A stretch of DNA of 64,000 nt from a virus (IMGVR_UViG_3300010429_001883:1-64000); one strand, 5' to 3'; shown: positions 13,582 to 32,928, counted from the stretch's first letter. Made by a program: numbers and translations. The notes: a model not told the origin generated them from the letters alone.

Positions 13582-14301
13582 CTACTGGCCGTTCTCGACA
13601 TCGTCCGGATTGGGCGAAGTCGGAATGATGCTGGACAGGATCTCCTTCACGGTGCTGGCCGCCACACGAACGCCAGCGGCGGCACCCTTCAGAGAACCGG
13701 GCTTGGCAATCTCGTGGATGTCATGCTGATTAGTTTTCGCATTGACAGTCCACATGATGTCCACCTTGGAGCGATTGCTGGCAATAGCCGCCAGCACGAG
13801 GGCCAGGGTGCTGAGGTCGTCGTTCTGGATGTCCTCAACTGGGTCCCAGTCCATCAGGTTGGGGGCGATGCATTCATCGCTCTCGAACTGGATCTGCAGG
13901 TTCGAGTTCTTGAAGTCCTCCTTCACCTCCCGCGTGAGCGTGAAGGGCTTGCCGGCCATAGCCGCGTAGTCCACGGCACCAAGCAGGCGCATCAAATTGA
14001 TGCCACTCTGCGTGTTACCACGGACAGCTTCCGGAGTGTCCGACGGGTTGAACGTAATGTTCATGGTCTTCCGATTGGACATGGTCGGGGACTGGTTGCG
14101 GTCAACGCTCCGAATGAGTTGCTGTTCTTCGGTGCCGTCGGCCTTCTTGCGGGGATCAAGGTCGAGGCGAACGCGGGCAACGAAATTGTTGCTGTTCGCC
14201 GCAGCGGAACGAGCCAGGCTAGCCGCCGTGACAGTTGCGCTCGACACTTCGCCGGACGACGGAGTGTACGAAGCGGTGGGGTTTTGAAGATTGATCTTCA
14301 T
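13582..14301 (-). CDS. Hypothetical protein coupled to RNAP-1 (possible ssDNA-binding protein or transcription cofactor)
   Basis: ATGA overlap with the RNAP-1 stop; AGGAGG RBS; GC-richer codon usage; acidic C-terminal tail. Confidence 0.75.
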   Translation of the reverse strand: MKINLQNPTASYTPSSGEVSSATVTAASLARSAAANSNNFVARVRLDLDPRKKADGTEEQQLIRSVDRNQSPTMSNRKTMNITFNPSDTPEAVRGNTQSGINLMRLLGAVDYAAMAGKPFTLTREVKEDFKNSNLQIQFESDECIAPNLMDWDPVEDIQNDDLSTLALVLAAIASNRSKVDIMWTVNAKTNQHDIHEIAKPGSLKGAAAGVRVAASTVKEILSSIIPTSPNPDDVENGQ

Positions 14302-17300
14302 GAGTCATGCCTCCTGAACAAGCTAAAATATTTTTCAATACCTTGACGAGTCTCCTCATCATATTCAGGGTACTGGTCATTGTATACCCTGAATACCCTC
14401 TGAAGAAGCTCTGTCGGAGCTACTTTCCAAATCAATGAAGTACGAAGATTATATCCTAGTACATCCCTGAAATCAGTAGCCCTTATAGCACCAAGAAGAG
14501 AGAAAAACCACATAGAGATCATATCATAGTGACCAGGTTTTGCAACTCTTCTCATGATGTCAGCCAGATTATGAACAACACCTGGCTTCTGTATTCTTCC
14601 TTCCTTATCCACAACACCATGCAAGAATCGGGTTACTTCCGACCATTCCATGGTTGACGTGAATCCTTCTTCGCTGTTGACATCAAACTGCTCTGCATAT
14701 TGCTGAGTCAGTTTGGTATACATTTCCATAACGACGAGGGCGTATTCTTTCAACTCGTTAACAGCCATGATATCCAGAGAAGCGTTAACTAGAGGATCAA
14801 GTTCTTTCAGGATGGCTGTGAAGATTGGCGTGTACATGTGCATGAAGCTCTGGTTAAAGATGATTGAATACTTATTCTCGTACGGAGTACCTGCATACCC
14901 ACGAGGGATAAGGCTGGTAAATTCCAGAGAGATGAAATCGTCAACGATTTCATAATACGGATGATTGAAGATTTGGTATGCAAGCTTCTTATTGTTTGGC
15001 AACCAAACGTTCAGCACCCAAATCCAATAATCACGTAGGAACATCCACCAATCCAAATATTGGTCTTTGGAATAGGGGATTTTGTGTCCAGTGTCGCGGA
15101 CAAACTCCAGGAGCATTCCGCTTAACGTGGGCGGCGAAGAGAGTTTTTCTGGGTTGAAGAACAGAATCGCGTTAACAGGATTTTCATGATCGTGAACGAA
15201 CAAAAAATCCTTTTCAAGTTGATCTGAATAATCAACTTGAATGATATTGTGTTTAGGCTTGAAGTCTTCGATAACGCGCTGAATATGTTGCCTGAGTTGT
15301 GTTTTCTCTTCGTCGGAAAGATTCTGTTTCTTGCAAATTCTTTCGAAGACAATCCTAGTCACGCGATTGTCTTCGATACCGATAGCGGCTTTGGAAGTAA
15401 GCGTTTTGTAAGCAGCATCAACGACTTCTGAGACGCTCATAATATCGCATTCGTTGATATTTTCGCCCTTAAGCCCTTCCAGCCTGCTACCCTGCTTACA
15501 GAATCCGGTAGCCCATGTTGGTAGAATGCCTGCCAGATCACCATCGAAATCACCTGAAGCAGTAGCCCAATCCTCCGGATGCAGTTCGACTACGTTTCCG
15601 AAAGACCAATCCACTACTTTCGCAGTGAATGAATCTCTCGTTCTCACCTTGCGAGAATCGCTTTCGGTAATGCAATCGAGATTCGGGTTTCTAACGATGG
15701 TGATATATCCGTTGGCATCAACGATGGGTTTGAAGTCTAGCGGGATTCGGCACTCGCCCTGCTTCAGTCCGATTCCAGGTGCGGCTAGCCGATACCCATA
15801 CTTGACATGGGTCATGCCTTTTTCGTTGGCTACAACCTTGTTAGCCAACTTGTAGGTACATTTGGCTTTGAGAGCAACCTTAGCCAGAAGGTTGGCAACT
15901 CTTCCAATGACCTGCGGGTGGAACGGAGCCATGCCCATTTTTATCAGCACCATAGCTGATTGGAAACTGGACAGGCTGCTCTGGGACATGTTATCGTATT
16001 CAAGGATCTTCTCAACTACACTATACTTTTGGGAAACAACCTTTCCTTCACACATGAAAGAGTCTTCGATAGCGTTTCCCTTAGTATAGATCAGATCAAT
16101 GACTCGCTGAATTTTAGCGAGTTCATTACGAATCAAACCCTTGATACGATCTTTGTCGGGTAGTCCTCTAGCAACCAATTGACGGCTAACATTGCTATAA
16201 GGCTTCTTAGCAGCGGCATCGTCACTAAAGATTCCGATATCATCGGAACTAATCTCACATGCAGGATATGAGATAGTTGGTGTGGCACAGCCCGGACATT
16301 TTGTAACGTTACGGCTCAATGGCAACCAACGCCATGAACATCCGGGGTTTTCACACATGGACAAGCGATGTTCTCGAGCTTCAAGATCAAGACGTGCACG
16401 ACGTTCTTGCTTGATGGCCTTCGGGTTAAAAACAACCCGAATAGTGTCCACATCAAGCGGAAGACCGAATTCAGATTCCCATACGTGGTCTGGAAGGAAT
16501 CGAATGCATCCTTTTACGGAGCTGGATGCACACTGCAGCATTGTCACATCGCTAATGTAGCCACTTGCAGCCATCAGTTGCATTCCATAGGTTGCCGGCA
16601 TGAAGGCAATGATGCCATCATACTGAGTCAACCGATCAAGGATAATTCCACGCAACAAGGGCTTTTTGGATTTCTCCAAAATCTCTCCGAGCCTCACACG
16701 AGATTTGGCTGACGGAGTCGCAAAATAGCTACTTTCGAAATGCAGCTGGTTACAGGGCATCACGAATCGCTTGACGGTAGTGACAAGCGACATTCTGGAC
16801 ATTCTTTCCTCATTTCCCATTAGTGGGACGTAAAACAGTTCCATCCCACTACGGTCAGTAAACGATGTAAGGTGAGGCTGATTTCCATACTTCGCATAGA
16901 AATCCTGGAATCGTTCAAAGGTTTCTGGAGTCGGCGGATACTCAGATGGAGCAACTGGAAGATTCTTAAACTGCTTGGGGATTCTATCCTCCGGCCAAGG
17001 GCCAAAGCGCGCTTTCAGGCAATCTTCTCCGATAAGAATTCCAAGCTTATCTTCGCCGTTGCCACGAAAAGCAGCTTCATCACAATACAGGAATGTGGCA
17101 CTAGTCACCATTCCTGTACTAGTGCCGAGAGGATAGAGGGCATCGATGGTTGGAACACCGGTTCGTCCAGTCATTACTTGTTCAAACAACTGTGGTGATC
17201 CAAGCATCGTATTTCTCTGCCCCGTGTTAGGATCAATAACCTTCACGAGATAGATGCTTCCGCCCATGCGTTTAGCTGTGGTATAAGCCAAACAAGAACG

Positions 17301-17738
17301 CATTCGGAATTTGTGGGTTTGAAGATAGTTTTCGATCTCAATGATAGGTCGATCAAATGATCGGCTTTTCTTGAGGATCTTAGCAAGTTCTTCATCATCA
17401 GGCATACGAAAGTTGGGAACTTTCGTTTTCCCGATGATCTGCTGGGCAATGAGATAGTATCCAGGGACTTGAATAAGGTTATAGCGCCAGATATACTCCA
17501 ACTCATTTTCAAGATCGCGTTCACTCATGAACGATGCTGGAGTTTCCGGACTGCAAAACCTTTTCACAAGTTCCAGGACTTTGTCCTTCTCATACTCGTC
17601 TGAACTGAAGGTTTGCCCATTGATTGAGAATGAAAGAATTCTACAGATATTTCCTGCGAATCTTTCAATCTCGATACTGTATGGGCCCACCTCAATCAGG
17701 CTGAGAAGGGCCCGCTGGGCCATCTCCTTTCGATTCAT
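14298..17738 (-). CDS. RNAP-1: single-chain double-psi-beta-barrel RNA polymerase (YonO/cellular-RdRP-like)
   Basis: VKG, IVRNPNL and ASGDFDGD (DFDGD at 15537-15551) in the expected order; Zn ribbon CENPGC...CPGC; 1146 aa. Confidence 0.82.
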   Translation of the reverse strand: MNRKEMAQRALLSLIEVGPYSIEIERFAGNICRILSFSINGQTFSSDEYEKDKVLELVKRFCSPETPASFMSERDLENELEYIWRYNLIQVPGYYLIAQQIIGKTKVPNFRMPDDEELAKILKKSRSFDRPIIEIENYLQTHKFRMRSCLAYTTAKRMGGSIYLVKVIDPNTGQRNTMLGSPQLFEQVMTGRTGVPTIDALYPLGTSTGMVTSATFLYCDEAAFRGNGEDKLGILIGEDCLKARFGPWPEDRIPKQFKNLPVAPSEYPPTPETFERFQDFYAKYGNQPHLTSFTDRSGMELFYVPLMGNEERMSRMSLVTTVKRFVMPCNQLHFESSYFATPSAKSRVRLGEILEKSKKPLLRGIILDRLTQYDGIIAFMPATYGMQLMAASGYISDVTMLQCASSSVKGCIRFLPDHVWESEFGLPLDVDTIRVVFNPKAIKQERRARLDLEAREHRLSMCENPGCSWRWLPLSRNVTKCPGCATPTISYPACEISSDDIGIFSDDAAAKKPYSNVSRQLVARGLPDKDRIKGLIRNELAKIQRVIDLIYTKGNAIEDSFMCEGKVVSQKYSVVEKILEYDNMSQSSLSSFQSAMVLIKMGMAPFHPQVIGRVANLLAKVALKAKCTYKLANKVVANEKGMTHVKYGYRLAAPGIGLKQGECRIPLDFKPIVDANGYITIVRNPNLDCITESDSRKVRTRDSFTAKVVDWSFGNVVELHPEDWATASGDFDGDLAGILPTWATGFCKQGSRLEGLKGENINECDIMSVSEVVDAAYKTLTSKAAIGIEDNRVTRIVFERICKKQNLSDEEKTQLRQHIQRVIEDFKPKHNIIQVDYSDQLEKDFLFVHDHENPVNAILFFNPEKLSSPPTLSGMLLEFVRDTGHKIPYSKDQYLDWWMFLRDYWIWVLNVWLPNNKKLAYQIFNHPYYEIVDDFISLEFTSLIPRGYAGTPYENKYSIIFNQSFMHMYTPIFTAILKELDPLVNASLDIMAVNELKEYALVVMEMYTKLTQQYAEQFDVNSEEGFTSTMEWSEVTRFLHGVVDKEGRIQKPGVVHNLADIMRRVAKPGHYDMISMWFFSLLGAIRATDFRDVLGYNLRTSLIWKVAPTELLQRVFRVYNDQYPEYDEETRQGIEKYFSLFRRHDS

Positions 17739-18055
17739 TGTTCCTCCTCATTGTTCCTCCCGATTTTTTGGATTTCTTCGTCGAAGAGCATGGGCCTGTA
17801 ATCTCCTAGCGCTACTCGCGCAAAGATCAGACCGCTGTACTCTCTCAAGAAAAGAGAAATAACTTTCTCAAGTTCTATCTCAATTCCTCTAAATACTGTT
17901 TCTATCGGTTCCACTTCCAGCAGAATTTCATCTGCTAGTTTTCTGCTTTTGATAATGAAAGGAACTACTAGTTCCCTGCCGTCTAGATTAAGGTATACCT
18001 TAGCCGGCATGTCGTTGTTAAGCCGGCGCGGAAACACTTGAATTTTCTCTATCAT
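17735..18055 (-). CDS. Hypothetical protein
   Basis: ATGA-coupled to RNAP-1. Confidence 0.7.
   Translation of the reverse strand: MIEKIQVFPRRLNNDMPAKVYLNLDGRELVVPFIIKSRKLADEILLEVEPIETVFRGIEIELEKVISLFLREYSGLIFARVALGDYRPMLFDEEIQKIGRNNEEEQ
17846..17862 (-). promoter_or_regulatory. TTCTCTTTT motif copy upstream of RNAP-1 (no hairpin)
   Basis: ctcaagaaaagagaaa is identical over 16 bp to the copy at 21305-21320; it lies about 110 nt before the RNAP-1 ATG. Confidence 0.55.
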
Positions 18056-18581
18056 CGTTTTCCCTCAAGCATACCGCGTTATTGGGAACAGATTGAAGAA
18101 TCTGTCCCATAGATTCCAAAACGGCTTCTTCCTTCATATCAGATCGTTCTGCATCCTCTCCGAAGGAAGGATAGAACGAAATGATAATGCTATTATGAAA
18201 AACACTAGAAAACCTTTTAACAGACTCAATTGTTTTGGAAAAGGCATGTCTAAATTGGGCCACTCCAAGATATTCGGATTTAGATTCGTTGTAGGTTGGT
18301 TTCACAATATAAAACAGACAATCAACTGTTTTACCATAGACTTTTACGCTCCAACCCATATAGTTGGTTAGTGCTGGAGCTTTCTGTATCATTGGAAGAG
18401 AAGAAACGATAAGTTTACAAAACTCATCGTTCTTAGCCATCATAAGGCTAATCAAAGGTGGAACGTAGAGATTCGTCCTATAGGTATAGGACGATATCTC
18501 AATAGGTACAATCAGGATATCTTGATTACCAATTGTACCTATAAGTTCTGCTTCCGTCCGATCAATTAACGTGACTTTCAT
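18018..18581 (-). CDS. Hypothetical protein, possibly a degenerate macrodomain
   Basis: LFYIVKPTY...AFSKTIE...IISFYPSFG...EEAV echoes macro IIHAVGP.Y...AY...SIAFPAISTG...EAA, but the Gly-rich loops are missing. Confidence 0.5.
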   Translation of the reverse strand: MKVTLIDRTEAELIGTIGNQDILIVPIEISSYTYRTNLYVPPLISLMMAKNDEFCKLIVSSLPMIQKAPALTNYMGWSVKVYGKTVDCLFYIVKPTYNESKSEYLGVAQFRHAFSKTIESVKRFSSVFHNSIIISFYPSFGEDAERSDMKEEAVLESMGQILQSVPNNAVCLRENDDRENSSVSAPA

Positions 18582-18870
18582 GTTCTAATGCTCCTAGAGC
18601 TTTTTCAAGAATTGGTGGAAGATTTTGAATAAATTCATGTATCGTGCAGTGCCATACGTTTAGGTCTTGGCTTAACCTAGTTACTGTATCAATACAATGA
18701 ATTCTTGCCTCTTCTTCTGGAGTAAAAATGCAGAATTTATCATTCACTTGTAGAAGACAACAAGTGATGTCGCTGAGATGGTCCCTATGGATAAGCCCGA
18801 GTTTTAAATTTTTGGATAATTTCGAGGAAGAGGATAATAGCGTTTTACAGAAAAATTGCTTCTTGACCAT
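18562..18870 (-). CDS. Hypothetical protein
   Basis: AGGAG RBS; operon context. Confidence 0.65.
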   Translation of the reverse strand: MVKKQFFCKTLLSSSSKLSKNLKLGLIHRDHLSDITCCLLQVNDKFCIFTPEEEARIHCIDTVTRLSQDLNVWHCTIHEFIQNLPPILEKALGALEHESHVN

Positions 18871-18924
18871 CCAGCTTCTCCTTGTTAATAGGTAGAATGT
18901 GGATAATGCATAATCGTCAGGCCG

Positions 18925-19321
18925 GGCTATCCACTATACTCTACTTAGAGCACGAGCATAGTGGATAGCCACGAGCCCGGGAAGCAAGTTACTCGTATAG
19001 GGCCGCTCCCTACCCGTTACTCCCTATACGAGAATCCTATACCTGGAGTAGGCTTGTTAAAGGACATATTAGGGTCTCCTACGTAGGGACTTTCAGTCTA
19101 AAGGATAGATTCTCGCCATTCTCTAAGTTGTTCCCAATAAAATGGAACCTCAACGGGTTTAAACCCGTTGACTTTTCCATTTTCTTCTCCATTAAAGGGG
19201 TTATGTAATTTCTACCTTTTTAGTTTAAGTAACTTATCAAAAAAAGAGAAAAAACAAGACATTGATCGTTTCTGAGTTAACGAAGGGGAATAACGTTAAC
19301 TCATTAGAAATCAATGTCTTG
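18925..19321 (-). ncRNA. Highly structured non-coding tract
   Basis: Perfect stems ggctatccactat/atagtggatagcc, ctcgtataggg/ccctatacgag, tcaacgggtttaaacccgttga and caagacattgat/atcaatgtcttg. Confidence 0.5.
19237..19254 (-). promoter_or_regulatory. TTCTCTTTT motif copy after a long hairpin
   Basis: tcaaaaaaagagaaaaaa is identical over 18 bp to 23081-23098. Confidence 0.6.
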
Positions 19322-19401
19322 CATGGAGAAAATAAGAGGTACGAGAAACATGGAAGGACTGAGACTGAAGGGCGAGAACTAATTCACTTTAAATCAGTAT
19401 T

Positions 19402-19629
19402 TTAGCTCCTTACCATAGAGTGCTTTGAAATAATCGCGTTAAGTTCACGTATAACGTCGATTAGTTTCTTTTTATCGCACTCTATGCAACAGGTGTCCGG
19501 ATCGATATCGACTTGGGACATGTCGCGCAAAGCGAGAACCAATTTTGTGCGAGCAGAAATTGCTTTGGAGACTGAGGAAGATATTTGAGCAGGAGATGCC
19601 GAGGATGATTTGTGCTTATAGCAGATCAT
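19402..19629 (-). CDS. Hypothetical protein
   Basis: AAGGAGGT RBS. Confidence 0.7.
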   Translation of the reverse strand: MICYKHKSSSASPAQISSSVSKAISARTKLVLALRDMSQVDIDPDTCCIECDKKKLIDVIRELNAIISKHSMVRS

Positions 19630-19986
19630 ACGATCACCTCCTTATATGGGATCGTTTCTTACCCTATAAGGGGAAGATCACGCCAACGGCGGCCACAACA
19701 TTGACAGTGTTCCCACGGCCAATGCAGGCCTAAAAGGTTCTTAATAAAGGCCGCGGTGAGACCACAGCCAAGTACCCCATATAATCTCCCCTAATAACTA
19801 GTAATACAACCAATACACCTCTTCCTAGTAAAGGAAGAGATGAATCAGAATCCAAGAAAATTGCAGAAATTAGAAAAGGAATTAGAAGGATTATAGGACA
19901 TTAAAAAGAACCTAGAAATTAATTAAAAAGAATTACAGGAATTAAGAGGAAGAGAGAGTAGGTGTGGTTGCAGAAACTCTGACTGG

Positions 19987-20002
19987 GCAATTTTCGTGCC
20001 AA
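19987..20002 (-). promoter_or_regulatory. Sigma-54 (-24/-12) promoter consensus
   Basis: Minus strand TTGGCACGAAAATTGC is an exact TGGCACG-N4-TTGC match; intergenic. Confidence 0.65.
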
Positions 20003-20073
20003 TCGAAGTTTCACCTTTTTTACACTTTTTTCTCTAAATTCCTGTAATAAATTTTTTTTAAATTTGGGAATTT

Positions 20074-20322
20074 CTAAGAATCGAGTATATTAGCAGAGAA
20101 ATGGTAGTCAGAGGTAGGCTTTCTACCTGCTAATTTATCGATCATATGTTGGGAAATTGCCTTATTAAAGGACTTACAGTTAACGAGAATGGGGATAGCC
20201 TGGCCCGTGACCTGCCAAGATTCACCATCAAATTGACCTTGTGATGCTCCACAATGGCATACACGCCAGTCGGGAAGCATCTTTACCATGTCCTTACATA
20301 CTGGACAGTACATTAGCATCAT
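20074..20322 (-). CDS. Zn-ribbon phage hypothetical protein
   Basis: CPVC..CHCG; GAGGT RBS. Confidence 0.7.
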   Translation of the reverse strand: MMLMYCPVCKDMVKMLPDWRVCHCGASQGQFDGESWQVTGQAIPILVNCKSFNKAISQHMIDKLAGRKPTSDYHFSANILDS

Positions 20323-20327
20323 GGATA

Positions 20328-20561
20328 TTACCTCCTATCCTCCGGTTTTCTTTGAGTATTGCTACTCAACTTTTCCTTATTCCATGCTATTACCCTAATT
20401 CCTTGGGTAAGATAGACAATGGAAGCAAGAATGGAAGCTGACATCCCTAATACCGTGTATATAGGGTCTTCTTGTGTTAGGTAGATAAGGGTTCCTACCC
20501 CGGAACTGAAGAGAGATAGCAGGAAAAGTACTACTGCTAACTGTAGCTTTTTCAATGCCAT
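20328..20561 (-). CDS. Two-TM membrane protein
   Basis: Two hydrophobic helices; AAGGAG RBS. Confidence 0.7.
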   Translation of the reverse strand: MALKKLQLAVVLFLLSLFSSGVGTLIYLTQEDPIYTVLGMSASILASIVYLTQGIRVIAWNKEKLSSNTQRKPEDRR

Positions 20562-20624
20562 AGGTGTTCTCCTTTTTATCTATAATTTAAATAACTTAAA
20601 CTATAGATATGTTTAGGGTTAGTT

Positions 20625-21306
20625 CTACTCTTCTTTTTTACCCTTTTTCCCATAATGGGAAGAGGTTATACCCAAAAAGAGGTAGTAGAGAGATAGATAT
20701 AGAGATAGTTATCCAGTAGTAGTTATTTAATGGACTACTATGTGGATATCGGTTTCGGGTCGCCTGCAAATTCCCATACCATCCTCCGGCCACGTATGGG
20801 TGTGGTTTAGCGGGCCCCCTGCGTAGAAAGGCGTTAATTCGCCTGCCTCTCCCTTAAAAAAGGAAGTCATTCGCAGGAGCTGTCGAGGTCGCCCGAAGGT
20901 CACTTACGACAGTGTTCATGCATTTGAACAGTCCTATTGTATTCATGTGTGGAGATGCCAACGAATAAAAGTCGTTAGCTTTTACCTGTTAATTCAGGTT
21001 AGTCTATGTGCTGCTAGGTTTACCCTGGCCTAGGGACTAGCTGCGCCGTAACTCGCCTGCCGGCGGGGCGCTCCACACAAGTTTATTTTCTGAAGTATCT
21101 TTTTATTAGTTTATAAATTCCGTAGAAGAGTAAGAAGATCCAGAATCCTTGGATTACTAGGATCTTTAGGCAAGTAAATCCTACTAGATCCCACATGGTA
21201 GCCTCCTTGGGATGGATACCGGGATTTTGATGTTACTCAAATAACGAGGTAATCCCGGAAACCTTTGTTATTTGGAAGAATCACAGGTGAGGTACGCTAG
21301 ATACCT
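20625..21306 (-). ncRNA. Large (~680 nt) structured ncRNA candidate
   Basis: No ORF of 60 aa or more in the track; nested stems; GCAGGCGA occurs three times; begins right after a motif copy. Confidence 0.55.
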
Positions 21307-21343
21307 CAAGAAAAGAGAAAGAAGGGGCTTGTTAGGCCCCTTC
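21307..21343 (-). terminator. Hairpin plus TTCTCTTTT motif (terminator/promoter cassette)
   Basis: GAAGGGGC/GCCCCTTC followed by TTTCTCTTTTCTTG. Confidence 0.7.
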
Positions 21344-21463
21344 AGTACTTGAGTTTCTGTTTCACTCCTTCAGACATCTTGAAACCCTGTACTTTTTCGA
21401 AGTGGGTTTCAAAATATCTTTCTTGTTTACGTTGTTCTTTGCGAGACAAGGGTCTCGCGCTGG

Positions 21464-21931: not shown

Positions 21932-21932
21932 G

Positions 21933-24161: not shown

Positions 24162-26297
24162 TCAGCCGCCGTAAATCTTGGAGTAGATGTCCTGCGGGAT
24201 CTGCCGCTTGTATTTCCGCATGATCCGGTAAGCCGCCTTGGCTTGCTTCGGCGTGAAATTGAACTCCTGATCGGCCAGGGAATGGCCGAAGTCGGCGTCC
24301 ATCTTGTTGAACCCGGACCCGTCCAGAGCGTTGGCGTAATCGCACCGGTTGGCCACCATCTTGACGGCCATCTGCAGCATGGCCGACTGCTCCTCGGTCA
24401 GACCCACCTCAGCGAATGCCTTGGCTCGGGCTTCCGTGGTATTTTCCTTGGCCTTGGGGGCCGGGGTGGCTACCTTAGTAGCTTCCTTGGCCTCAACCAC
24501 GTCCCCGGCCTCTTCTCCGGGGAACCCGCCGATGAACCCCTGGGCCTCCAACTCCTCCATGGTCTCGGTCTGCGGGTGCTCCTGCTTCAGCACCTCCACC
24601 CGCTCCGTCTGCCGGTTCCACTCCTCGGTCAGACCGTTGACCCCCGCGCCGAGGTCCATGGCCCGATCGATGTTCTCCTGCTTGCCCACTATGATGTTGG
24701 CCATCCGGGAGTCGATGGAACCTTCCAGAACCAAGTGCTGCACCAGCACACCCTCGTTCTGGCCCTTGCGGTGGCAGCGGTCCTCAGCCTGGGTCACGTT
24801 GCCGGGCACCCAGTCGATCTCAAGGAACACCACATGGGATGAAGCGGTCAAGGTGATGCCCACCCCGGAAGCCCCCATGGTCCCCACGAACAACTGCACC
24901 GACCCGTCCGTCTGGAACCGGTCCACCGAGTTCTGCCGCTTCTCCTTGCTCATGTCCCCGGTGGAGAGGACCGCCCGATTCTGAAACTCGGTGAAGATCT
25001 GGTCGGCGACGTCCTTGTGCCAGCAGAACAACACCACCTTCTTGGCCGGGTCATCATCCAACAGGTCATACAGGTGGCTGATCGCGTACGGCACCTTGGC
25101 CAGCCCGGTCTCGTGCCGGATCACGCTCATCTCCTCGAACAACACCTGCTCGGCCTCATGCAGGTCCCGCACGGCGTTCCGGTAGGCTTCCTCGTCATTG
25201 GCCACCCTGGCCTGTTCCATGGCGTCCTTCAGCAGGGCGATGGCCTCCTGCTTGGAATCCCACAGGTCGTTGCCCCGCTTGATCAAGTCGGCCGCACCGT
25301 TGGCCGGAAGTTCGATCACCTGCCGCCGCTTCGGCGGGAGGTCCTTCATCACGTCCCGCTTCAACCGCCGGATCATGATGGTGGAGCGGAGCTTGGTCTG
25401 AAGCTCCTCCAAATTGGACGCCCCGGTCATATCCCAACCGAACCGGGTCTGAATGGCGTTGCAGTACCGCTTGGCGTAGGCCATGAAGTTGTTCCACGTG
25501 TTGGGGTCCAGCGAGTTGATCAGAGTCCAGAGTTCCACCGGCCGGTTCACGATGGGGGTGCCGGTCATGTAGATCTTGCGCTTGGCCGGGATCGGCTTCA
25601 CGGTCCAAGTCCGGATCTTCCAGTCCCATTTGCCGAGGATCAGCTTGGTCCGCATGGCCTCGCGGTTCTTGGCGTAGTGGGCCTCGTCCACCACCAGCAG
25701 ATCCCACTCGGCCGAGTGGATGAACCCGATGTACTTGGCGAGGATGTCGTAGTTGATGATGAAGATGTCGGCCGTGAAGTCGTCCTGCTTCCCGCCGAGG
25801 ACCGACACCCGCAGCGGCCGCACCAGCCACTTCTCGCATTCGCGCTTCCAATTGATCTTGAGGAAGGCCGGGCAGATCACCAGCACCCGCTTGATGTCCG
25901 GGTTCAAATTGACCACCCCGATCGCCTGGATGGTCTTGCCGAGTCCCGGTTCATCCCCGATCAGAGCGTTGCCCCGGTTGTACGCTTCAATAATCCCAGC
26001 CTTCTGGAAAGGCATGTACTCCAAGTTGGGGTTCGAGGGGATCTTGACCTCGGCGTCCGTGGCGAAAGAGGAACTGAACCGGGCAACCAACCGGCCCCGC
26101 CACTCGTCCAGGATATCCTTGGTCTCGCCGTAGGCCAGATCGTACAGCTTGTTGGCCACCTCGGTGGAGGGGGCGTACCACGTCTTGTGGGTCCCATCCC
26201 ACCGGAAACCGGCCCCCTTGGGAACCTCTCGCTCCTCGTACGGGCAGACCGTCTCGAACCGCTTCCGCTCCTCATCCCAAATCAGCTTAGTTTTCAT
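24162..26297 (-). CDS. SNF2/SMARCAL1-like helicase (annealing-helicase type)
   Basis: YMPFQ; GDEPGLGKT (Walker A variant); DEAH; MTGTPIVNRP; GVGITLT; QAEDRCHRKGQ; N-terminal GFRWD..K.WY domain. Confidence 0.92.
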   Translation of the reverse strand: MKTKLIWDEERKRFETVCPYEEREVPKGAGFRWDGTHKTWYAPSTEVANKLYDLAYGETKDILDEWRGRLVARFSSSFATDAEVKIPSNPNLEYMPFQKAGIIEAYNRGNALIGDEPGLGKTIQAIGVVNLNPDIKRVLVICPAFLKINWKRECEKWLVRPLRVSVLGGKQDDFTADIFIINYDILAKYIGFIHSAEWDLLVVDEAHYAKNREAMRTKLILGKWDWKIRTWTVKPIPAKRKIYMTGTPIVNRPVELWTLINSLDPNTWNNFMAYAKRYCNAIQTRFGWDMTGASNLEELQTKLRSTIMIRRLKRDVMKDLPPKRRQVIELPANGAADLIKRGNDLWDSKQEAIALLKDAMEQARVANDEEAYRNAVRDLHEAEQVLFEEMSVIRHETGLAKVPYAISHLYDLLDDDPAKKVVLFCWHKDVADQIFTEFQNRAVLSTGDMSKEKRQNSVDRFQTDGSVQLFVGTMGASGVGITLTASSHVVFLEIDWVPGNVTQAEDRCHRKGQNEGVLVQHLVLEGSIDSRMANIIVGKQENIDRAMDLGAGVNGLTEEWNRQTERVEVLKQEHPQTETMEELEAQGFIGGFPGEEAGDVVEAKEATKVATPAPKAKENTTEARAKAFAEVGLTEEQSAMLQMAVKMVANRCDYANALDGSGFNKMDADFGHSLADQEFNFTPKQAKAAYRIMRKYKRQIPQDIYSKIYGG

Positions 26298-26416
26298 CGG
26301 ACACCTCCCACTCCAACTTTGTAGATGGTGATTGCTAGGTCAGTACAGGAAGCTACTTGGCCTAGGATCGGGACATGTTTGCCTAGTTTTTTTAGGTTTC
26401 GGAGATACTCGTTCAT
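26294..26416 (-). pseudogene. Truncated 40-aa paralog of 23455-23688
   Basis: MNEYLRNLKKLGKHVPILGQVASCTDLAITIYKVG-VGGVR*; the stop overlaps the helicase ATG. Confidence 0.7.
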
Positions 26417-26569
26417 GTTATCCTCCTAGGTATCCTATAAATTTTAGAAAATAGGGAGAGGGCAAGATGCCGGTTATTGGAGTTATGCGTCGGGGCGGTC
26501 ACATTCAATGTTCCGCGCCATGCCACGCACTATCCGCCGTACTCACCCTCTCCCAGTGGAGGATACCAT

Positions 26570-26606
26570 CAAGAAAAGAGAAAAAAAGAGGGCACGGGCC
26601 CCCTTT
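26570..26606 (-). terminator. Hairpin plus TTCTCTTTT motif
   Basis: GGGGC/GCCCC hairpin followed by TTTTTTTCTCTTTTCTTG. Confidence 0.7.
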
Positions 26607-26871
26607 AGTTGATATTGGTGTTATTGTGAAGTAGCACGTTCACCAAGTCGGAGTCGAAATCCGGCTTGGGGTCGACGTGTGGTGCGAGAGTGGTCAGAAC
26701 GCTTGTAAGTGCGGTATCAGCCTTGATTAGGTCTTGTAGCACTTTGACGCTTAGTGCATTGTTCATGCTCTTGTCGGTGTCCATGGCGACGATCAGCATC
26801 TTTACCATGAATTCAACTTTGCCGAGCGCGCCGCAGAGAGCCGTCATAAACACTTCGTGATTGCACGGCAT
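26605..26871 (-). CDS. Hypothetical protein (start re-assigned to MPCNHEV)
   Basis: GGAGGT RBS precedes the ATG at 26871; same frame as track ORF 26605..26994. Confidence 0.65.
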   Translation of the reverse strand: MPCNHEVFMTALCGALGKVEFMVKMLIVAMDTDKSMNNALSVKVLQDLIKADTALTSVLTTLAPHVDPKPDFDSDLVNVLLHNNTNIN

Positions 26872-26901
26872 TGGTATACCTCCAAAGAAAGATATTACTA
26901 C

Positions 26902-26936
26902 CAAGAAAAGAGAAAAAAGAAGGCGTAAGCCTTCTT
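26902..26936 (-). terminator. Hairpin plus TTCTCTTTT motif
   Basis: GAAGGC-TTAC-GCCTTC followed by TTTTTTCTCTTTTCTTG. Confidence 0.7.
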
Positions 26937-26941
26937 TTTGG

Positions 26942-27445
26942 TTACAGTTTGAACTCGGTTGTGGCCAGGTTGACGATGTGGATGCCGTAAGCACGGGCTA
27001 ATCGGAGTGCCTGCTCGGTGCCGCCATGGCCGGGACTCCAGCAGATGACCATGTCTACTGGTGTCTTGAGGTCAATGCCGAGAATCTGGTGCATGTTGCG
27101 GGCGTGCAATAGGGTCGCTGCCCGCGAGCACATGTGCCAGGCTGGGTGATGGTCTGCGGCTAACGCCAGCGCTGCTTGTGACGGCCGGTTGAGTGGCGAT
27201 GTAGATCCGTTGAATCCTGGCCAAGGCAAGAATATCTCTTTCTTACCATTGGCACGGTCACACCCACGTTCGAACGCCGAGTCTGCGCCGGCCGCGGCCC
27301 CGGAACGTAGTACCCAGCCCTTCTGGGCCATTTCGAAGCCAATGATCTCCATTTGTTGTAGAACGGTTGTTGGAGTTCTTCTGGAACCAATACCGGCATA
27401 GACGTGTGTACGGAATGGGATTTGCTTTTCATTCTGTTGGCACAT
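26942..27445 (-). CDS. SLOG-superfamily (DprA/YspA-like) phage protein
   Basis: YAGIGSR.TP, LRSGAA.GAD, HARN..QILG, GGT.QA. Confidence 0.85.
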   Translation of the reverse strand: MCQQNEKQIPFRTHVYAGIGSRRTPTTVLQQMEIIGFEMAQKGWVLRSGAAAGADSAFERGCDRANGKKEIFLPWPGFNGSTSPLNRPSQAALALAADHHPAWHMCSRAATLLHARNMHQILGIDLKTPVDMVICWSPGHGGTEQALRLARAYGIHIVNLATTEFKL

Positions 27446-27540
27446 AGCTTGTATCCTCCAAAGAAAAAGAGTAAGTTCCCCTAGGTACCGTTTACTACTC
27501 GGTTTAAGGCCCTACGCAAACCTAGGGGAAAGAAGCAACT

Positions 27541-27577
27541 CATGAAAAGAGAAAAAAAGAAGGCCGAAGCCCTCTTT
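27541..27577 (-). terminator. Hairpin plus TTCTCTTTT motif
   Basis: GGC-TTCG-GCC hairpin followed by TTTTTTTCTCTTTTCATG. Confidence 0.7.
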
Positions 27578-27886
27578 TCATAAAGGTATTACAAGTACGA
27601 GCTTTTGGTGCTTACGCACCTTCCAGCATCCGTGGGATGATGCCGGGAAGGCCACAATAAGCGAGTCCGGCCAGATTTCCGGGCCATCATCTGCGTGCTT
27701 AGATGACAGCCAATGGGTTTCGATCTTTGTAGGGTCGAACTGGACGACCCACGGCCCGCGGCCGCCGGTAGATCGTTCTTCCCAACCCTCTGGGCACGGT
27801 GGAGCGATTCGCCCGCGGCAGAAATTACACTCGCAGGCGTTACGGAACGCTCGCCAGTTGTCGCCCCATTCATCTGGGGTTCTCAT
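27578..27886 (-). CDS. Hypothetical protein
   Basis: GGAGGT RBS; ends at a terminator. Confidence 0.7.
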   Translation of the reverse strand: MRTPDEWGDNWRAFRNACECNFCRGRIAPPCPEGWEERSTGGRGPWVVQFDPTKIETHWLSSKHADDGPEIWPDSLIVAFPASSHGCWKVRKHQKLVLVIPL

Positions 27887-27909
27887 GATTTACCTCCAAT
27901 GTAAATGTT

Positions 27910-27967
27910 TGGCGTGTGGGGGGATTCGAACACCCCCTGCCCGATGCTACTCGGGTTACTACACACG
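27910..27967 (-). ncRNA. 58-nt D-arm-less tRNA-like RNA ending in CCA
   Basis: CGTGTG/CACACG-CCA acceptor; CCCGA-GTAGCA-TCGGG hairpin; GGGGG..TTCGAAT-CCCCC T arm. Confidence 0.6.
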
Positions 27968-28044
27968 GAGCCATAACCGGTTTATGGCCCAGCACTATGC
28001 GCACTTGTGCTGGTTTTCGCCGGGTCGCTCTCCGCTACACACGC

Positions 28045-28060
28045 CATGAAAAGAGAATAA
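28045..28060 (-). promoter_or_regulatory. TTATTCTCTTTTCATG motif copy
   Basis: Identical over 16 bp to 28739-28754. Confidence 0.65.
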
Positions 28061-28066
28061 GGGGTG

Positions 28067-28258
28067 TTAGTCCCCCACGACCACCATGCTGGTCGCCATC
28101 GCGATGGTGGTGGCCTCACCATCGCTCTCAAGGCGGCGGACGTACTCGGCGTACGCCCGACGGGCCGCCTTGCGCTCATCCAGGCGGGCGGCAAGCGCCT
28201 GGATGGCCTCCGCCTCGCGGCGGCGAGTGTCGTTTTTGGAGTCCATGGCAACCTCCAT
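28067..28258 (-). CDS. Small hypothetical protein (likely start MDSKN)
   Basis: GGAGGT RBS; flanked by motif copies. Confidence 0.65.
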   Translation of the reverse strand: MEVAMDSKNDTRRREAEAIQALAARLDERKAARRAYAEYVRRLESDGEATTIAMATSMVVVGD

Positions 28259-28271
28259 AATTAAACTTAGT

Positions 28272-28304
28272 CATAAAAAGAGAATAAGGGGCCGGAGCCC
28301 CTTA
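28272..28304 (-). terminator. Hairpin plus TTATTCTCTTTTTATG motif
   Basis: TAAGGGGC-TCCG-GCCCCTTA hairpin. Confidence 0.7.
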
Positions 28305-28308
28305 GTTG

Positions 28309-28644
28309 CTAGAACGGATTCCCGCTGTCGGTCGCGGGCGCGGGGGCGGGCGCGGTGGTCGTGGTCGCGGGCTTTTCATCCGGGGACGAAGTGTCCTCGG
28401 TCAAAGTCCCGCGTTTGAACACTTGGGATGTCCCGCCTGTCTTGGTGGCGACCGCCACGGCTTTGTCGGCGTCGAACATGACCCCGGAGAACCACACGCC
28501 TCCGACATTGAGGCTAGCGGTGACAACCTGGGTGCCGTCAGCCTTGACCACCTTCTTCAGGAGAAGGGGGACTCCGCTCGCCAGCGCCACCAGGATCTGG
28601 GCCTCCGCGCCGAACTTGTCAGCGACCAATTGCTTGATAGACAT
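28309..28644 (-). CDS. Small beta-rich protein with T/P/A linker and -DSGNPF tail (SSB-like architecture)
   Basis: GGAGGT RBS before MSIKQL at 28644. Confidence 0.7.
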   Translation of the reverse strand: MSIKQLVADKFGAEAQILVALASGVPLLLKKVVKADGTQVVTASLNVGGVWFSGVMFDADKAVAVATKTGGTSQVFKRGTLTEDTSSPDEKPATTTTAPAPAPATDSGNPF

Positions 28645-28738
28645 TATCGTACCTCCAGGGCAAAGATTTTCAATCAATAGCAGAGAATCAGACTCCGTGA
28701 TGGGCCGCCAACAACCCACCACGGAGCCCGAAACTCAT

Positions 28739-28778
28739 CATGAAAAGAGAATAACAGGCGTTGGGATCTCCAACACCT
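28739..28778 (-). promoter_or_regulatory. Imperfect hairpin plus TTATTCTCTTTTCATG motif
   Basis: First full motif copy downstream of RNAP-2 in the direction of transcription. Confidence 0.65.
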
Positions 28779-29569: not shown

Positions 29570-29576
29570 CCCTCCT
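29551..29576 (-). terminator. Terminator after RNAP-2
   Basis: AGGAGGGGT/ACCCCTCCT hairpin followed by TTTT. Confidence 0.75.
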
Positions 29577-32500
29577 ATTCCTCCACGTAATAGCTATCCG
29601 CTTGATCCTGACTAAGAACCAAGTCAGGATCGGGCCCATCGTCAAGGACATATTCGGAGAGGTCTGTCCCCTCTTCGTAGTCCTCGCCGATTTCCCCGGC
29701 GGGTGTATCCTTATACCACCCGGACACCAGCCGAGCGGTAGCTGCAGCAATGTGATCGGTCCAGCAAAGCCGATCACTTATAAGGCGATAATTAGTAACC
29801 AGAGCGATGTAGAAACAAAGCTCTGGCTGCTCTTTCGCCCAAGACTGGACAACTGCCGGCAGGCAGTCCTTGATCCAGTCTTTCGTAAAGATCTGCAGTT
29901 CCACGTGTTGGGTGACATGCTGAATCACCTGCAGTGTGGACACTGCTTGCCCGCCGCCAGCAGGAATCCATCTGGCATCGGCGAGGGTGGCAGCCGTATA
30001 GCTGACCAACATCCCCCACGCCTCGGCCAGGTCCTCGCGGGTCGGGGTAGCTTCGGGAGGAAGCCCCTCAAGTTGGGGCATCCCGCCCTTGCCCATCACC
30101 TGCATGTTCTGCAGGATGCGGGCCTTCAACATGGTGGCCACGTTATTGCCACCGAAGAAGCGGCGCAGATTCGACTGGGCCGTCGGACGATCCTTGGCCA
30201 GCTGGGCTTCAAACAGCGGCTTGAGCCACTGCTGATTGAATGGGCGCATGTCCCATTCATATTTTCCCTTTGGCCGGTCTTGCACATACTTAGCGGCGAG
30301 CGTGTACATAGCTGCCGCCATGCGGTACGTGCGACCCTCGGCCAACCACCGCTGGATGGTGGGGCGCCACACGGTACGGAAGAACCGGTTGGTTGCCTCC
30401 GTAGTGTGGGTCTGGGGCCGGAAGTCCTGTTTGTACATGGGCACTTTCTTGCCCTTGTACGTCACAACGTCCGGGATCAGCTCAGACAGCGCTGATCTGC
30501 TGCCGCCAATGTGCTGGAACAAGGAGCCCTGTACGGGGTAGGATTGGCCCTTTTTCCAGCATCCGTTGAGGAGGACGTTCTGGAGGACATCCACGCCAGC
30601 GTAGACACTCCCGTTTTTGTCCTCACTAACCATGGCGTACATGCCGTGAAACATGTCCGCCAGGTCGAACGGGAAGCTGAACGATCCCATGAAGCAAGCG
30701 ACGTCGCTCAAGCGGGCGGCGTCGAGCTCATTCGAGATCGCATCAAAGAGCCCCACGATGTCGTGGGAGCCTTTGTGCTTCCCGTTACCCATGTCAATAT
30801 ACTCCTCGCCGAACCACTTCAGGAGAAGGACAAAGTACTTGCCCTCAATCTCCTTTAGGGTCACCAAGGAGTTAATGAGATGGGCGTACTTCGGCTCGTC
30901 GTCGGCGTCATACACCTTGCTCTGGAGAACTACTTCCCCAACACGAGCAAGGCGATACCGTTTCGCCGAGCTGTCGTTCGGGCAGCTATTCTTGGTGGCC
31001 ACGCGAAGATTGGTGGGATACGCAGCCACGAGCGTGCGCATCTCCTCGCTGGTCGGGCCAATTTTGCCTGCCCGGAATTTGGAAACGACCTCGTTGACCT
31101 TGTCAGCAGGCAGCCCAAGCTTTGCAGCCAGAGCGTTTGCTTCCATGGTCTGGAAGTCATTATACATCGCCTCGAGGAACCGGTACGCAGGGAGGTACCG
31201 GCACACGGTAGCGGCCCACGTCCCAATGGACGCTAGCATGCCGTGTTCGAGACAATACAGGTGGCTTTCGTACACATGCTTCCACCCACCACACTTCTTG
31301 GTGGCAGGCTTGTCCATGTACTTGGCCACCAGGGCCATGTCGGCGCGGGCTTCCAGATTAGGAATCTGGAAATTGTCCTTGATGCCGGCCAGGAAGCGCT
31401 CGTCAAAGAGCACCTTGGCTTCGTCATCAAGGTCCGCCCCGCCCAGAGTGCCCAACACCTGCTTCAAGTCGTGGAAGTTCACGTAAAGAACTCCCACGGC
31501 CGCGAACAGGGCCGGCACAGCCTTAGCGAAGTCCTTGAAGAGACCAACGACGATCTCCCAGGGATTCGCATGGGGCGAACGAACTACCGCCCCTTCTCCT
31601 TCCCGGCCCCACAGATGGAACTCACCCTTGGCCATAACCAGCGACTTAACGCTGTAATAGCCGCTGGGAAGCCACCCAGTTGGGTCCGGTTGGACGTACC
31701 CCCGGTCGCTGAACTCGGCCGGGATCATGACTCTCCCAATCGCGATCTTATCACGAAGCGTCTTGCCCTTGAGGGCAATGTTCATGATAAGGCTCCGCAA
31801 TTGGGGAAATCTGAAGATGTTGACCTTGCCCATGATGCGCAGGGCAGTAAGAATGGTGGCATTCTTCTGCACCTGGCTTAGGTCCAGGTCTTCATCATCG
31901 ACCTCCACCGCCTGAAGGTGGAGGAACTGACGGGTGGCCTCGACGCCAGCCCGCAACGCACGGTCAAAGGCCTCAAAGAATTCGTGCACATACTGCACGA
32001 AAACTCTTTCGGCCCCTGCCGTGAACATGGTGAGGAACTGCCGATCAGTGAAACAGGCACCGCGATGGTCCACGATACCTCCCACGATCAGCAGGCTGAC
32101 CGACGGCAGCCAGTCGGTCTTGAAGTTGACCTCGTGGTAAACGATGTCAACACCAGGACCAAGGCGCCAAGAGACACGAGCATTGCCCTTGACAATGCCT
32201 CTGCCCTTAAACACAATTCTCACACACTTGAGAATTGTGCCTTCGGGGAGAGGCTGGACTCCCCGAGCGCGCCAATTAGATCCATATAGCAGGCGCATAA
32301 TGTACTCGCCTGATACATGAATACACCCGTCATGGGCAGCCTTAAGGCTGGCTTCGAGAACGTCGTCAATTTCGACGCCCTCAGAAGCCGTAACCTCTCG
32401 CTGCCCCTCGTCGGTGAGCACCGCGTACCGAAGGCTTTCCGACTGCCAGTCGACAGCCAGAACGCCGCCCAGTAAGGCGCTCATCCGAGCGAAGACGGTG

Positions 32501-32928
32501 CCCATGATGGCTTTCATGGGCTTGTCTGATGTAGGCATGCCCCACATGGACATGCCCTTGACCACTCCGTCAGCCCAATCGGGGTGGACATAGAACGTCC
32601 ACTTGGACTGTCGGATGACGCACCACAGGGTCGTGGGCTTACGGAGCTCACCACGAAGAAGGGTTACCGCCTTCTTTCGCAGCCACGCCTTTCGGGTGCG
32701 GACGACAGAAGCATCGACGTCCCAAGACTCAATTCTGAGCTTGGAAGCATCGAGCTTCTTTGATTCGAGGAAGCCCAAGAGGACGGCAAATCGGCCCGTC
32801 TCCTGGGATTCCTCACGCTCAACGTTGAGGTACCGGCCTTCCTCAACCGAAACAGTCACTTTCGTTTTAGGAAAGCGGCTGTTGTTGAGGAGTGTCCCCA
32901 ACTTTCGCATGGCTTTCAGTACAGCCAT
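29575..32928 (-). CDS. RNAP-2: divergent single-chain DPBB RNA polymerase-like protein with variant catalytic loop DLDDE
   Basis: HDG, IVKG, VVRSPH and LGGADLDDE (31420-31434) occur in the same order as DG/KG/RxP/GGDxDGD of the RdRP/YonO families; 1117 aa. Confidence 0.65.
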   Translation of the reverse strand: MAVLKAMRKLGTLLNNSRFPKTKVTVSVEEGRYLNVEREESQETGRFAVLLGFLESKKLDASKLRIESWDVDASVVRTRKAWLRKKAVTLLRGELRKPTTLWCVIRQSKWTFYVHPDWADGVVKGMSMWGMPTSDKPMKAIMGTVFARMSALLGGVLAVDWQSESLRYAVLTDEGQREVTASEGVEIDDVLEASLKAAHDGCIHVSGEYIMRLLYGSNWRARGVQPLPEGTILKCVRIVFKGRGIVKGNARVSWRLGPGVDIVYHEVNFKTDWLPSVSLLIVGGIVDHRGACFTDRQFLTMFTAGAERVFVQYVHEFFEAFDRALRAGVEATRQFLHLQAVEVDDEDLDLSQVQKNATILTALRIMGKVNIFRFPQLRSLIMNIALKGKTLRDKIAIGRVMIPAEFSDRGYVQPDPTGWLPSGYYSVKSLVMAKGEFHLWGREGEGAVVRSPHANPWEIVVGLFKDFAKAVPALFAAVGVLYVNFHDLKQVLGTLGGADLDDEAKVLFDERFLAGIKDNFQIPNLEARADMALVAKYMDKPATKKCGGWKHVYESHLYCLEHGMLASIGTWAATVCRYLPAYRFLEAMYNDFQTMEANALAAKLGLPADKVNEVVSKFRAGKIGPTSEEMRTLVAAYPTNLRVATKNSCPNDSSAKRYRLARVGEVVLQSKVYDADDEPKYAHLINSLVTLKEIEGKYFVLLLKWFGEEYIDMGNGKHKGSHDIVGLFDAISNELDAARLSDVACFMGSFSFPFDLADMFHGMYAMVSEDKNGSVYAGVDVLQNVLLNGCWKKGQSYPVQGSLFQHIGGSRSALSELIPDVVTYKGKKVPMYKQDFRPQTHTTEATNRFFRTVWRPTIQRWLAEGRTYRMAAAMYTLAAKYVQDRPKGKYEWDMRPFNQQWLKPLFEAQLAKDRPTAQSNLRRFFGGNNVATMLKARILQNMQVMGKGGMPQLEGLPPEATPTREDLAEAWGMLVSYTAATLADARWIPAGGGQAVSTLQVIQHVTQHVELQIFTKDWIKDCLPAVVQSWAKEQPELCFYIALVTNYRLISDRLCWTDHIAAATARLVSGWYKDTPAGEIGEDYEEGTDLSEYVLDDGPDPDLVLSQDQADSYYVEE

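Follow-up and report, generated by a model that had tools for sequence, protein, structure and literature searches.

How does a phage that encodes two candidate RNA polymerases (RNAPs) of its own divide transcription between them? The question is raised by IMGVR_UViG_3300010429_001883:1-64000, a viral DNA stretch of 64,000 nucleotides (nt), referred to here as the window. Two stop-free open reading frames (ORFs) on its (-) strand, RNAP-1 (P0001; 1146 aa, 14298..17738) and RNAP-2 (P0002; 1117 aa, 29575..32928), are both candidate YonO-like single-chain two-barrel RNA polymerases. Enzymes of this kind are minimal relatives of cellular RNAP, and to our knowledge few have been characterised: YonO, QDE-1, crAss gp66 and the P23-45 pair. 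The original prediction placed the two ORFs in a cascade, with RNAP-2 transcribing a middle block that ends in RNAP-1 and RNAP-1 then serving later genes. On balance we favour the reading that RNAP-1 and RNAP-2 are a conserved, ordered gene pair of a small clade of wastewater myoviruses, that both are highly diverged members of the clade of YonO and the cellular RNA-dependent RNA polymerases (RdRPs), and that they may act in the relay proposed.

The window covers the initial 64 kb of its source record, a 148,472-bp IMG/VR virus with an estimated completeness of 78%. This myovirus has genes for the tail sheath and portal, for ribonucleotide reductase and for a DNA polymerase of family A that contains an HNH insert, as well as five tRNA genes, a sugar-biosynthesis cluster and collagen-repeat fibre genes. 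Near-identical DNA was found in anaerobic-digester and activated-sludge metagenomes from several independent studies.

Probable polymerase identity of the two proteins

What had been described for the two ORFs of ~1100 aa stands, with two corrections. Both are intact and carry the KG, RxP and G-DxD motifs in that order: VKG (408-410), VRNP (682-685) and SGDFDGD (728-734) in RNAP-1; VKGNA (246-250), RSPH (450-453) and GGADLDDE (496-503) in RNAP-2. They show no similarity to each other by BLASTP or hhalign, compared either as proteins or as family profiles, and they differ in GC content, RNAP-1 having 45.2% (GC content at third codon positions, GC3, 0.47) and RNAP-2 57.3% (GC3 0.71). One correction concerns the KG block of RNAP-2, for which there are two candidates (see below), and the other the Asp motifs. 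GDFDGD of RNAP-1 is as predicted; GGADLDDE is present in RNAP-2, but its conserved part is DLDD and the final E varies.

Both families are tiny: among ~1.8 billion representatives, each amounts to about five clusters at the 50% identity level. For RNAP-1, phmmer run exhaustively against 1.84 billion representatives returned only four other clusters (P0008-P0011, 29-32% identical). RNAP-2 has four relatives, of which two are close and two, P0007 (30% identical) and P0006 (31% identical), are distant. A scan of JGI metagenomes for RNAP-2 relatives gave a single 1.5-kb fragment, scans of IMG/VR with both family alignments found no relatives, and tblastn against 50,697 phage records produced no match for RNAP-1 or RNAP-2. 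Small as they are, these families single out the same residues as the motif search. Invariant in the RNAP-1 family are YDGI (373-376), K409-G410, R413/P416, R683-x-P685, GNVxExHP (714-721), GD[F/Y]DGD (729-734) and I786-G787, together with a Cys4 zinc-ribbon insert at residues 462-484. Invariant in the RNAP-2 family are HDG (199-201), VKGNA (246-250), PD (414-415), RSPH (450-453), PWE (456-458), TLGG-x-DLDD (494-502) and I568-G569. Because the motif residues are invariant among relatives that are only ~30% identical, the motifs are not chance strings. The residue that follows DLDD is E or Q across the RNAP-2 relatives and is therefore not a ligand candidate, so the conserved acidic set is D499, D501 and D502.

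For the comparison with YonO, the YonO sequence was taken from the SPBc2 record and its relatives were collected together with six divergent YonO-like phage proteins (~24-51% identical to YonO); the resulting 22-sequence profile was compared with each RNAP family by hhalign. Both families aligned to the same catalytic stretch of YonO, above all nulls, as the original prediction would have it. RNAP-1 676-839 aligns to YonO 485-638 (P=5.6e-4) and RNAP-2 397-625 to YonO 438-653 (P=2.9e-4). The RNAP-1 core scores 38.1, against 16.1±2.4 for a column-permuted null (maximum 23.1, n=60), 17.4 for the reversed profile and at most 25.4 after block shuffling; the RNAP-2 core scores 42.1, against 16.5±3.1 (maximum 27.8, n=60), 16.0 and at most 23.0. 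The aligned blocks are collinear in both families, RxP coming first, then the Asp motif, then IG, and they are superposed on YonO RSPH, DNDGD and NIGE, respectively. A one-residue gap in the hhalign alignment places D499, D501 and D502 of RNAP-2 on the three catalytic Asp residues of DxDGD. Thus the blocks of the catalytic double-psi beta-barrel (DPBB-A), RxP followed by the Asp loop, are present in both proteins, and RNAP-2 fails the strict DxDxD spelling. The first barrel is easier to place in RNAP-1, whose YDGI (373-376) and K409-G410 align to YonO TDGCG and WVKG (P=0.003), than in RNAP-2, where HDG (199-201) is present and the KG block aligns poorly to YonO. Neighbours in the ESM Atlas agree: PF05183 RdRP sets appear in 24 of 30 for RNAP-1 and 21 of 30 for RNAP-2, and these PF05183 clusters come mostly from tailed phages and Bacillota.

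A number of results argue against this identification and have to be set beside it. The hhalign probabilities are only 30-47% for both families. Pfam PF05183 matched neither protein at E<=1 and nothing in the six-frame genome at E<=10, although the model is a weak yardstick, giving no match at E<=10 on the YonO-encoding SPBc2 and registering in a B. subtilis control genome only below the cut-off. Pfam and PHROGs returned nothing for either protein at standard thresholds, phmmer and profile searches against PDB sequences found nothing significant for either, and a YonO hidden Markov model run by hmmsearch on all proteins of the genome ranks neither above other proteins. AlphaFold2 models built with the family alignments reach a mean pLDDT (predicted local distance difference test) of 43.7 (RNAP-1) and 36.6 (RNAP-2), and both catalytic cores stay under 50; the confidence is low because there are too few relatives, five sequences per alignment. 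A Foldseek search of the PDB with the low-confidence RNAP-1 model yielded noise only and no match. In RNAP-2, moreover, the first-barrel KG is ambiguous, being either K247-G248 or [R/K]222-G223, neither of which is aligned with confidence, and the metal motif is one residue short and lacks the canonical third Asp position.

The predicted assignment to single-chain YonO/RdRP-type polymerases is therefore supported by the profile alignments with their shuffled controls, the collinear motifs and the language-model neighbours, and is weakened at RNAP-2's first barrel. We hold it very probable that RNAP-1 is a two-barrel RNAP and probable that RNAP-2 is one as well, with an unusual, shortened metal loop. 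For both proteins, the fold and the catalytic activity are what we infer from sequence.

The gene pair and the T-rich motif between its members

The two genes travel together. A 73-kb contig, ERR14146536_1509, carries P0006 (RNAP-2-like) and P0009 (RNAP-1-like, 31% identical) on the same strand with the RNAP-2-like gene upstream, and the spacing is ~12.8 kb, compared with 11.8 kb in the window phage. Co-occurrence, order and spacing are thus kept in a related genome at ~30% identity; co-occurrence was a check that the original prediction had called for. A close relative from another sample, L002 (80-99% nucleotide identity), has both genes in collinear arrangement. In three lineages a GC-rich block read in one direction sets out from a divergent junction, and the RNAP-2 gene is found within its first few kb. 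In the window this GC-rich head of the leftward block occupies 29575..36000 on the (-) strand, with a GC content of 52-73% against a genome mean of ~37%, and RNAP-2 is its largest gene; in L004 and L005, both distant relatives, the surroundings of the RNAP-2-like gene are GC-rich as well. A chimeric assembly was considered as the source of the GC jump and is ruled out, because the independent assembly of L002, from a different sample, is collinear across the junctions; the RNAP-2 region is GC-rich in distant relatives too. At the other end of the module, a conserved trio of genes (~240, 165 and 610 aa) follows the RNAP-1 homologue in the relatives. The 239-aa gene directly after RNAP-1 (13582..14301, (-) strand), for which synteny is seen in L006 and L007, is the first member of this trio.

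A repeat search surfaced a 14-nt T-rich motif, TTCTCTYYYYWTGR. The window holds 11 copies of it, every one on the (-) strand, which is the coding strand; 0.08 matches are expected, and none of 100 shuffles reaches that count. Its domain, 14491..28751 on the (-) strand, runs from just after RNAP-2 to just after RNAP-1. Listed by rising coordinate, the copies are at 14491-14504, 17845-17858, 19237-19250, 21306-21319, 23081-23094, 26569-26582, 26901-26914, 27540-27553, 28044-28057, 28271-28284 and 28738-28751. Read leftward, the first copy is 0.8 kb downstream of the RNAP-2 stop codon; the copy at 17845 is ~107 nt upstream of the RNAP-1 ATG, and the final copy precedes the 239-aa gene. The TTCTCTTTT core with the same flank occurs nowhere else in the 148-kb record.

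A GC-rich hairpin comes directly before seven of the ten TTCTCTTTT-core copies, and in the four clearest cases a Shine-Dalgarno sequence and ATG come 29-63 nt after the motif; the copies at 19237 and 23081 have no hairpin and stand directly upstream of a Shine-Dalgarno sequence and ATG. Motif and hairpin together look like a terminator-promoter cassette. A sigma-70 reading, with TTGA as the -35 element, was rejected by eye: there is no conserved -10-like element at a fixed spacing after TTCTCTYYYYWTGR, and for that reason the motif is unlike a sigma-70 promoter.

The motif is also kept in relatives. It is found in the close relatives L002 and L003, and in the ~30%-identity relative there are 10 unique copies, on the gene strand only, against expectations of 0.05 and 0.02. 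These copies span the same interval, beginning shortly past the RNAP-2-like gene and ending shortly past the RNAP-1-like gene, and over the two phages the motif mostly adjoins a GC hairpin. L004 has two copies, and the L007 copy at 13266-13279 matches the window copy at 14491-14504 in position. A DNA word that is kept while proteins drift to 30% identity would most simply be a site read by a conserved phage-encoded machine. As an alternative within this framework, TTCTCTYYYYWTGR could be a sequence-specific terminator, comparable to the one that serves the virion RNAP in P23-45.

ATACTAT, a putative late-promoter element, is another candidate signal, though a weaker one; it occurs 15-35 nt before the Shine-Dalgarno sequence of ~10 genes outside the TTCTCTYYYYWTGR interval (late or other genes). 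Examples are at window positions 37193, 6527(-) and 9069(-) and at genome positions 71605, 79734, 89110, 93414, 98623 and 121572. About one third of ATACTAT copies fall within the ~5% of the DNA that is intergenic, a few recur at intergenic-looking positions in relatives, and no consistent -35 element accompanies the sites. Host-type signals were sought with a sigma-70 consensus scan, which gave 31 sites where shuffles gave 17.3±3.8; being consensus matches, they are no evidence of function. Several (36131-37312) cluster at the divergent junction that forms the head of the leftward block (36100..37500, both strands).

Codon usage offers an independent view of the order of expression. GC3 falls stepwise along the leftward axis, from a mean of 0.64 in the RNAP-2 block through 0.50 in the RNAP-1 block to 0.37 in the tRNA block (1-13.6 kb), and late genes are at 0.28-0.30. 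The phage tRNAs include tRNA-Ile(TAT), Thr(TGT), Arg(TCT) and Leu(CAA), which read ATA, ACA, AGA and TTG; ATA, ACA and AGA are nearly absent from the GC-rich head. The RNAP-2 gene has 0.9 ATA and 5.4 ACA codons per 1000, the RNAP-1 gene 2.6 and 9.6, and the late genes 27 and 29. Genes that have to be translated ahead of any build-up of phage tRNAs would be expected to avoid the codons those tRNAs read, in which case RNAP-2 would come before RNAP-1 and both before the late genes. The gradient thus fits a sequence in which RNAP-2 is made first, RNAP-1 next and the late genes last.

Contigs from four metatranscriptome libraries in four studies match several small genes in 13.6-28.7 kb at >=99% identity. 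Cover of this kind does not prove transcription, because such libraries may contain DNA. None of the contigs is placed on the RNAP-1 or RNAP-2 ORF, and gaps are uninformative in contig data. Contigs of two studies end at 21353 and 21355, ~10 nt upstream, in the sense of transcription, of the 21343-21321 hairpin, which weakly hints at a 3' end there; these are contigs rather than reads, DNA carry-over is possible, and several ends carry adapter or foreign letters.

A possible transcription relay and its alternatives

These features can be assembled into a three-step scheme. The GC-rich head, whose codon usage is host-like, would be transcribed first, either by the host RNAP, probably from the 36-37 kb junction, or by an injected enzyme, and would yield RNAP-2. 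RNAP-2 would then start at the T-rich TTCTCTYYYYWTGR sites, each placed immediately behind a hairpin terminator and 29-63 nt ahead of a start codon, producing a series of short, insulated middle units with RNAP-1 among them. Finally, RNAP-1, with its canonical DFDGD and its zinc ribbon, would take over the AT-rich remainder, including the tRNA block and the structural genes, possibly from start sites of the ATACTAT type. The conserved pair, its gene order and the 14-nt signal, all found again in a very distant relative, point to a phage-run two-step transcription programme. That the two enzymes act in relay with RNAP-2 first is a claim we advance tentatively, at a little short of even confidence.

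The predicted relay gains indirect support from the conserved pair, order and spacing, from the interval-confined 14-nt motif and from the codon shift. Which enzyme would read which signal, and when, is our inference from gene position only: TTCTCTYYYYWTGR covers the interval that includes RNAP-1 and is absent upstream of RNAP-2, and ATACTAT stands before ~10 late or other genes. Two points weigh against the scheme. The motif may be a mere terminator U-tract, a host-factor site or an RNA-level element, and a possible injected third polymerase would alter step 1. The lead for such an enzyme is P0134, a 1649-aa ORF of the tail module beyond the window (genome 109987-114936; L010:7087-12033), whose two neighbours are giant ORFs as well, one of 2341 aa that includes a nuclease-like domain and one of 1984 aa that includes an M23 peptidase. 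DxDxD occurs once in P0134, as DRDKD at 1153; GTRWP (R1118-x-P) precedes it by 35 residues, and hydrophobic helices are present at either end of the protein. Searches of phages and of IMG/VR gave no relatives of P0134, neither Pfam nor PHROGs matched it, and profile comparison showed no similarity. By analogy with the tape-measure-fused RNAP of P23-45, it may be a virion-borne third polymerase.

One rival account accepts both polymerases and denies the relay, taking TTCTCTYYYYWTGR for a terminator U-tract or for an element of the host RNAP or of RNA processing, with the two enzymes acting in parallel, in another order or behind an injected P0134. The hairpins abutting seven of the ten cores are what a terminator would have, terminator-like sites are enriched overall (50 against 20.7±5.2), a single RNA-library contig terminates within the T tract, at 28281, and P0134 combines its DxDxD with a beta'-like 35-residue RxP spacing and with terminal hydrophobic helices like those of the P23-45 tape-measure RNAP. 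Yet a U-tract would not account for the specific C and G positions that the motif keeps besides its T run (CTCT...TGR), for the hairpin-free copies at 19237 and 23081, or for the restriction of the motif to one gene interval in two distant phages when hairpins occur elsewhere too; P0134, for its part, has no detectable relatives and resembles neither YonO nor either RNAP family at the profile level. We consider this account unlikely. Much the same doubt attaches to the idea that only RNAP-1 transcribes and that RNAP-2 is a two-barrel derivative with another job, such as making replication primers, working on RNA with helicase or NUDIX partners, or serving as an altered accessory subunit. The DLDD in place of DxDxD, the E or Q at the fifth position and the first barrel that cannot be aligned to YonO would suit a changed function, as would the company RNAP-2 keeps: P0006 (L005:10001-15196), at 1731 aa, is an RNAP-2 homologue that continues at its C-terminus into NUDIX and a helicase of the PIF1/AAA_30 type; the genes after the L004 homologue encode HD, YAcAr (SLOG-like) and MYG1-exonuclease proteins; and an SNF2 helicase cassette lies downstream of RNAP-2 in the window. 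On the other hand, D499, D501 and D502 are invariant at 30% identity and are set on the catalytic triad by hhalign, the gene heads a block whose cis-motif is private, as would be expected of a polymerase that determines specificity, only one lineage has the helicase fusion, and the SNF2 cassette is optional.

More radically, the motifs could be fortuitous and the two ORFs could encode large phage proteins of unrelated fold, neither of them a polymerase. This would agree with the lack of standard database matches, with the unusable fold models and with families of about five clusters. It is very improbable, given that two independent families fall on the same YonO-like catalytic stretch at 8-9 SD above shuffled controls, that the motif residues are each family's invariant residues, and that the language-model neighbours agree with a polymerase identity. 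At the opposite extreme, the relay could extend to the whole infection and make it host-independent, with RNAP-2 (DxDD) early and reading hairpin-flanked T-rich promoters, RNAP-1 (DFDGD) late and perhaps a tail-delivered starter carrying DRDKD within a giant ejection protein. We regard this version as quite unlikely. If true, it would be a three-tier relay of YonO-like enzymes only and would provide the first functional two-barrel RNAP without a DxDxD triad.

Known polymerases and neighbouring genes

The two candidates, and the relay proposed with RNAP-2 acting before RNAP-1, have partial precedents. YonO of SPbeta (PF05183-related) carries out template-dependent RNA synthesis, which is lost on mutation of the Asp triad (Forrest et al. 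2017, PMC5467207). The candidates resemble it in being single-chain, non-virion and phage-encoded proteins of ~840-1150 aa with the same block order (DG...KG, RxP, Asp motif, IG), and YonO is the best profile match of both families. They differ in that there is no match at the level of Pfam or of hidden Markov models, identity being undetectable outside ~130-200 residues, and in the Cys4 insert between the barrels of RNAP-1 and the DLDD of RNAP-2. The YonO-like phages examined have one such gene, usually beside an HU gene, whereas the window phage has two. In L016-L021 (phages of Clostridium, Psychrobacillus, Enterocloster, Bacillus and Thomasclavelia) and in SPbeta, an HU/histone-like gene lies within one or two genes after the YonO-like gene; no such gene was observed beside either RNAP-1 or RNAP-2. 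The Asp motif varies naturally within the YonO-like set, with DFDYD in BUCT082 and DADFD in a faecal phage contig.

The closest described arrangement is that of Thermus phage P23-45, in which gp96, a virion RNAP fused into a 5002-aa tape measure, and gp64, a non-virion RNAP, form a relay of two single-chain two-barrel enzymes; the first is virion-borne and injected, the host RNAP transcribes the late genes, the promoter motifs are of two distinct kinds, and a terminator motif is conserved (Chaban et al. 2024, PMC10770324). The window phage likewise has two very divergent candidates for single-chain two-barrel RNAPs in one genome. Its candidates differ in being ~1100 aa each, in lying in an early/middle block and in showing no sign of virion association. 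Phage phi14:2, which is crAss-like, has a packaged and injected RNAP of 2180 aa, gp66, with a variant DFDxD, which transcribes early genes and is the only phage RNAP, middle and late genes being left to the host enzyme (Drobysheva et al., bioRxiv 10.1101/2020.03.07.982082). It shares with the candidates a single chain, the two barrels and membership of the RdRP-like clade that are proposed for them, and a variant Asp motif. In the jumbo phages phiKZ and AR9, two phage-encoded two-barrel RNAP sets act in succession, each of 4-5 beta/beta'-like subunits, one of them packaged (PMC7598289; PDB 7S00/7S01). Those enzymes are multisubunit, whereas each candidate here is a single chain. The beta' chain of the AR9 non-virion RNAP was the sole return when the RNAP-1 core profile was run against PDB sequences, with its catalytic loop, GDYDGD..IPVF, as the part matched; at E~1 the match is not significant.

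A relay of phage polymerases is also familiar from coliphage N4, where a virion RNAP, then RNAP II and then the host RNAP act in turn on class-specific promoters. The N4 enzymes have the T7-like right-hand fold, not the two-barrel one.

The kind of system proposed here is therefore not new, since both single-chain two-barrel phage RNAPs and polymerase relays were already known. The original prediction knew of no phage with two such enzymes in relay; in that broad form the claim yields to P23-45 and to the multisubunit sets of phiKZ and AR9, and in a narrower form it holds, as we found in the literature no described phage with two ~1100-aa YonO-like candidates, both in an early/middle block. 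New here are two unannotated families paired in one genome, the invariant DxDD loop and the conserved candidate promoter/terminator cassette. The DxDD loop is a natural variant of a universally conserved metal-binding loop and tests how strict the DxDxD rule is. A candidate cassette kept across deep divergence makes promoter recognition by minimal enzymes directly testable, which is an open question for YonO. Along a single transcription axis, polymerase switching seems to be coordinated with codon usage and with the phage tRNAs, and small, orthogonal, promoter-specific RNAPs with compact terminators could serve as tools.

Several features nearby deserve a brief description. The SNF2-helicase cassette (23700..26313, (-) strand) contains a gene at 24162-26297 with GC3 0.88 and Pfam SNF2 and Helicase_C domains, and it lies between 117-nt direct repeats (23584-23700 and 26312-26428) that are 76% identical. 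It is absent from L002, one sequencing-run contig joins 23689 to 26418, and the cassette is outside the conserved module. A 167-aa protein encoded between the polymerases (26942-27445) has a weak SLOG/DprA-like match, and in L005 the RNAP-2 homologue is followed by a 168-aa protein that faintly matches this SLOG family too. Elsewhere in the window, two collagen-repeat proteins of 1257 and 397 aa (56892-62608), with hundreds of GYS-type 9-nt repeats, adjoin a large sugar-biosynthesis and radical-SAM cluster (39.9-54 kb). The final 1 kb of the record (147.5-148.5 kb) is GC-rich again, at 56-68%.

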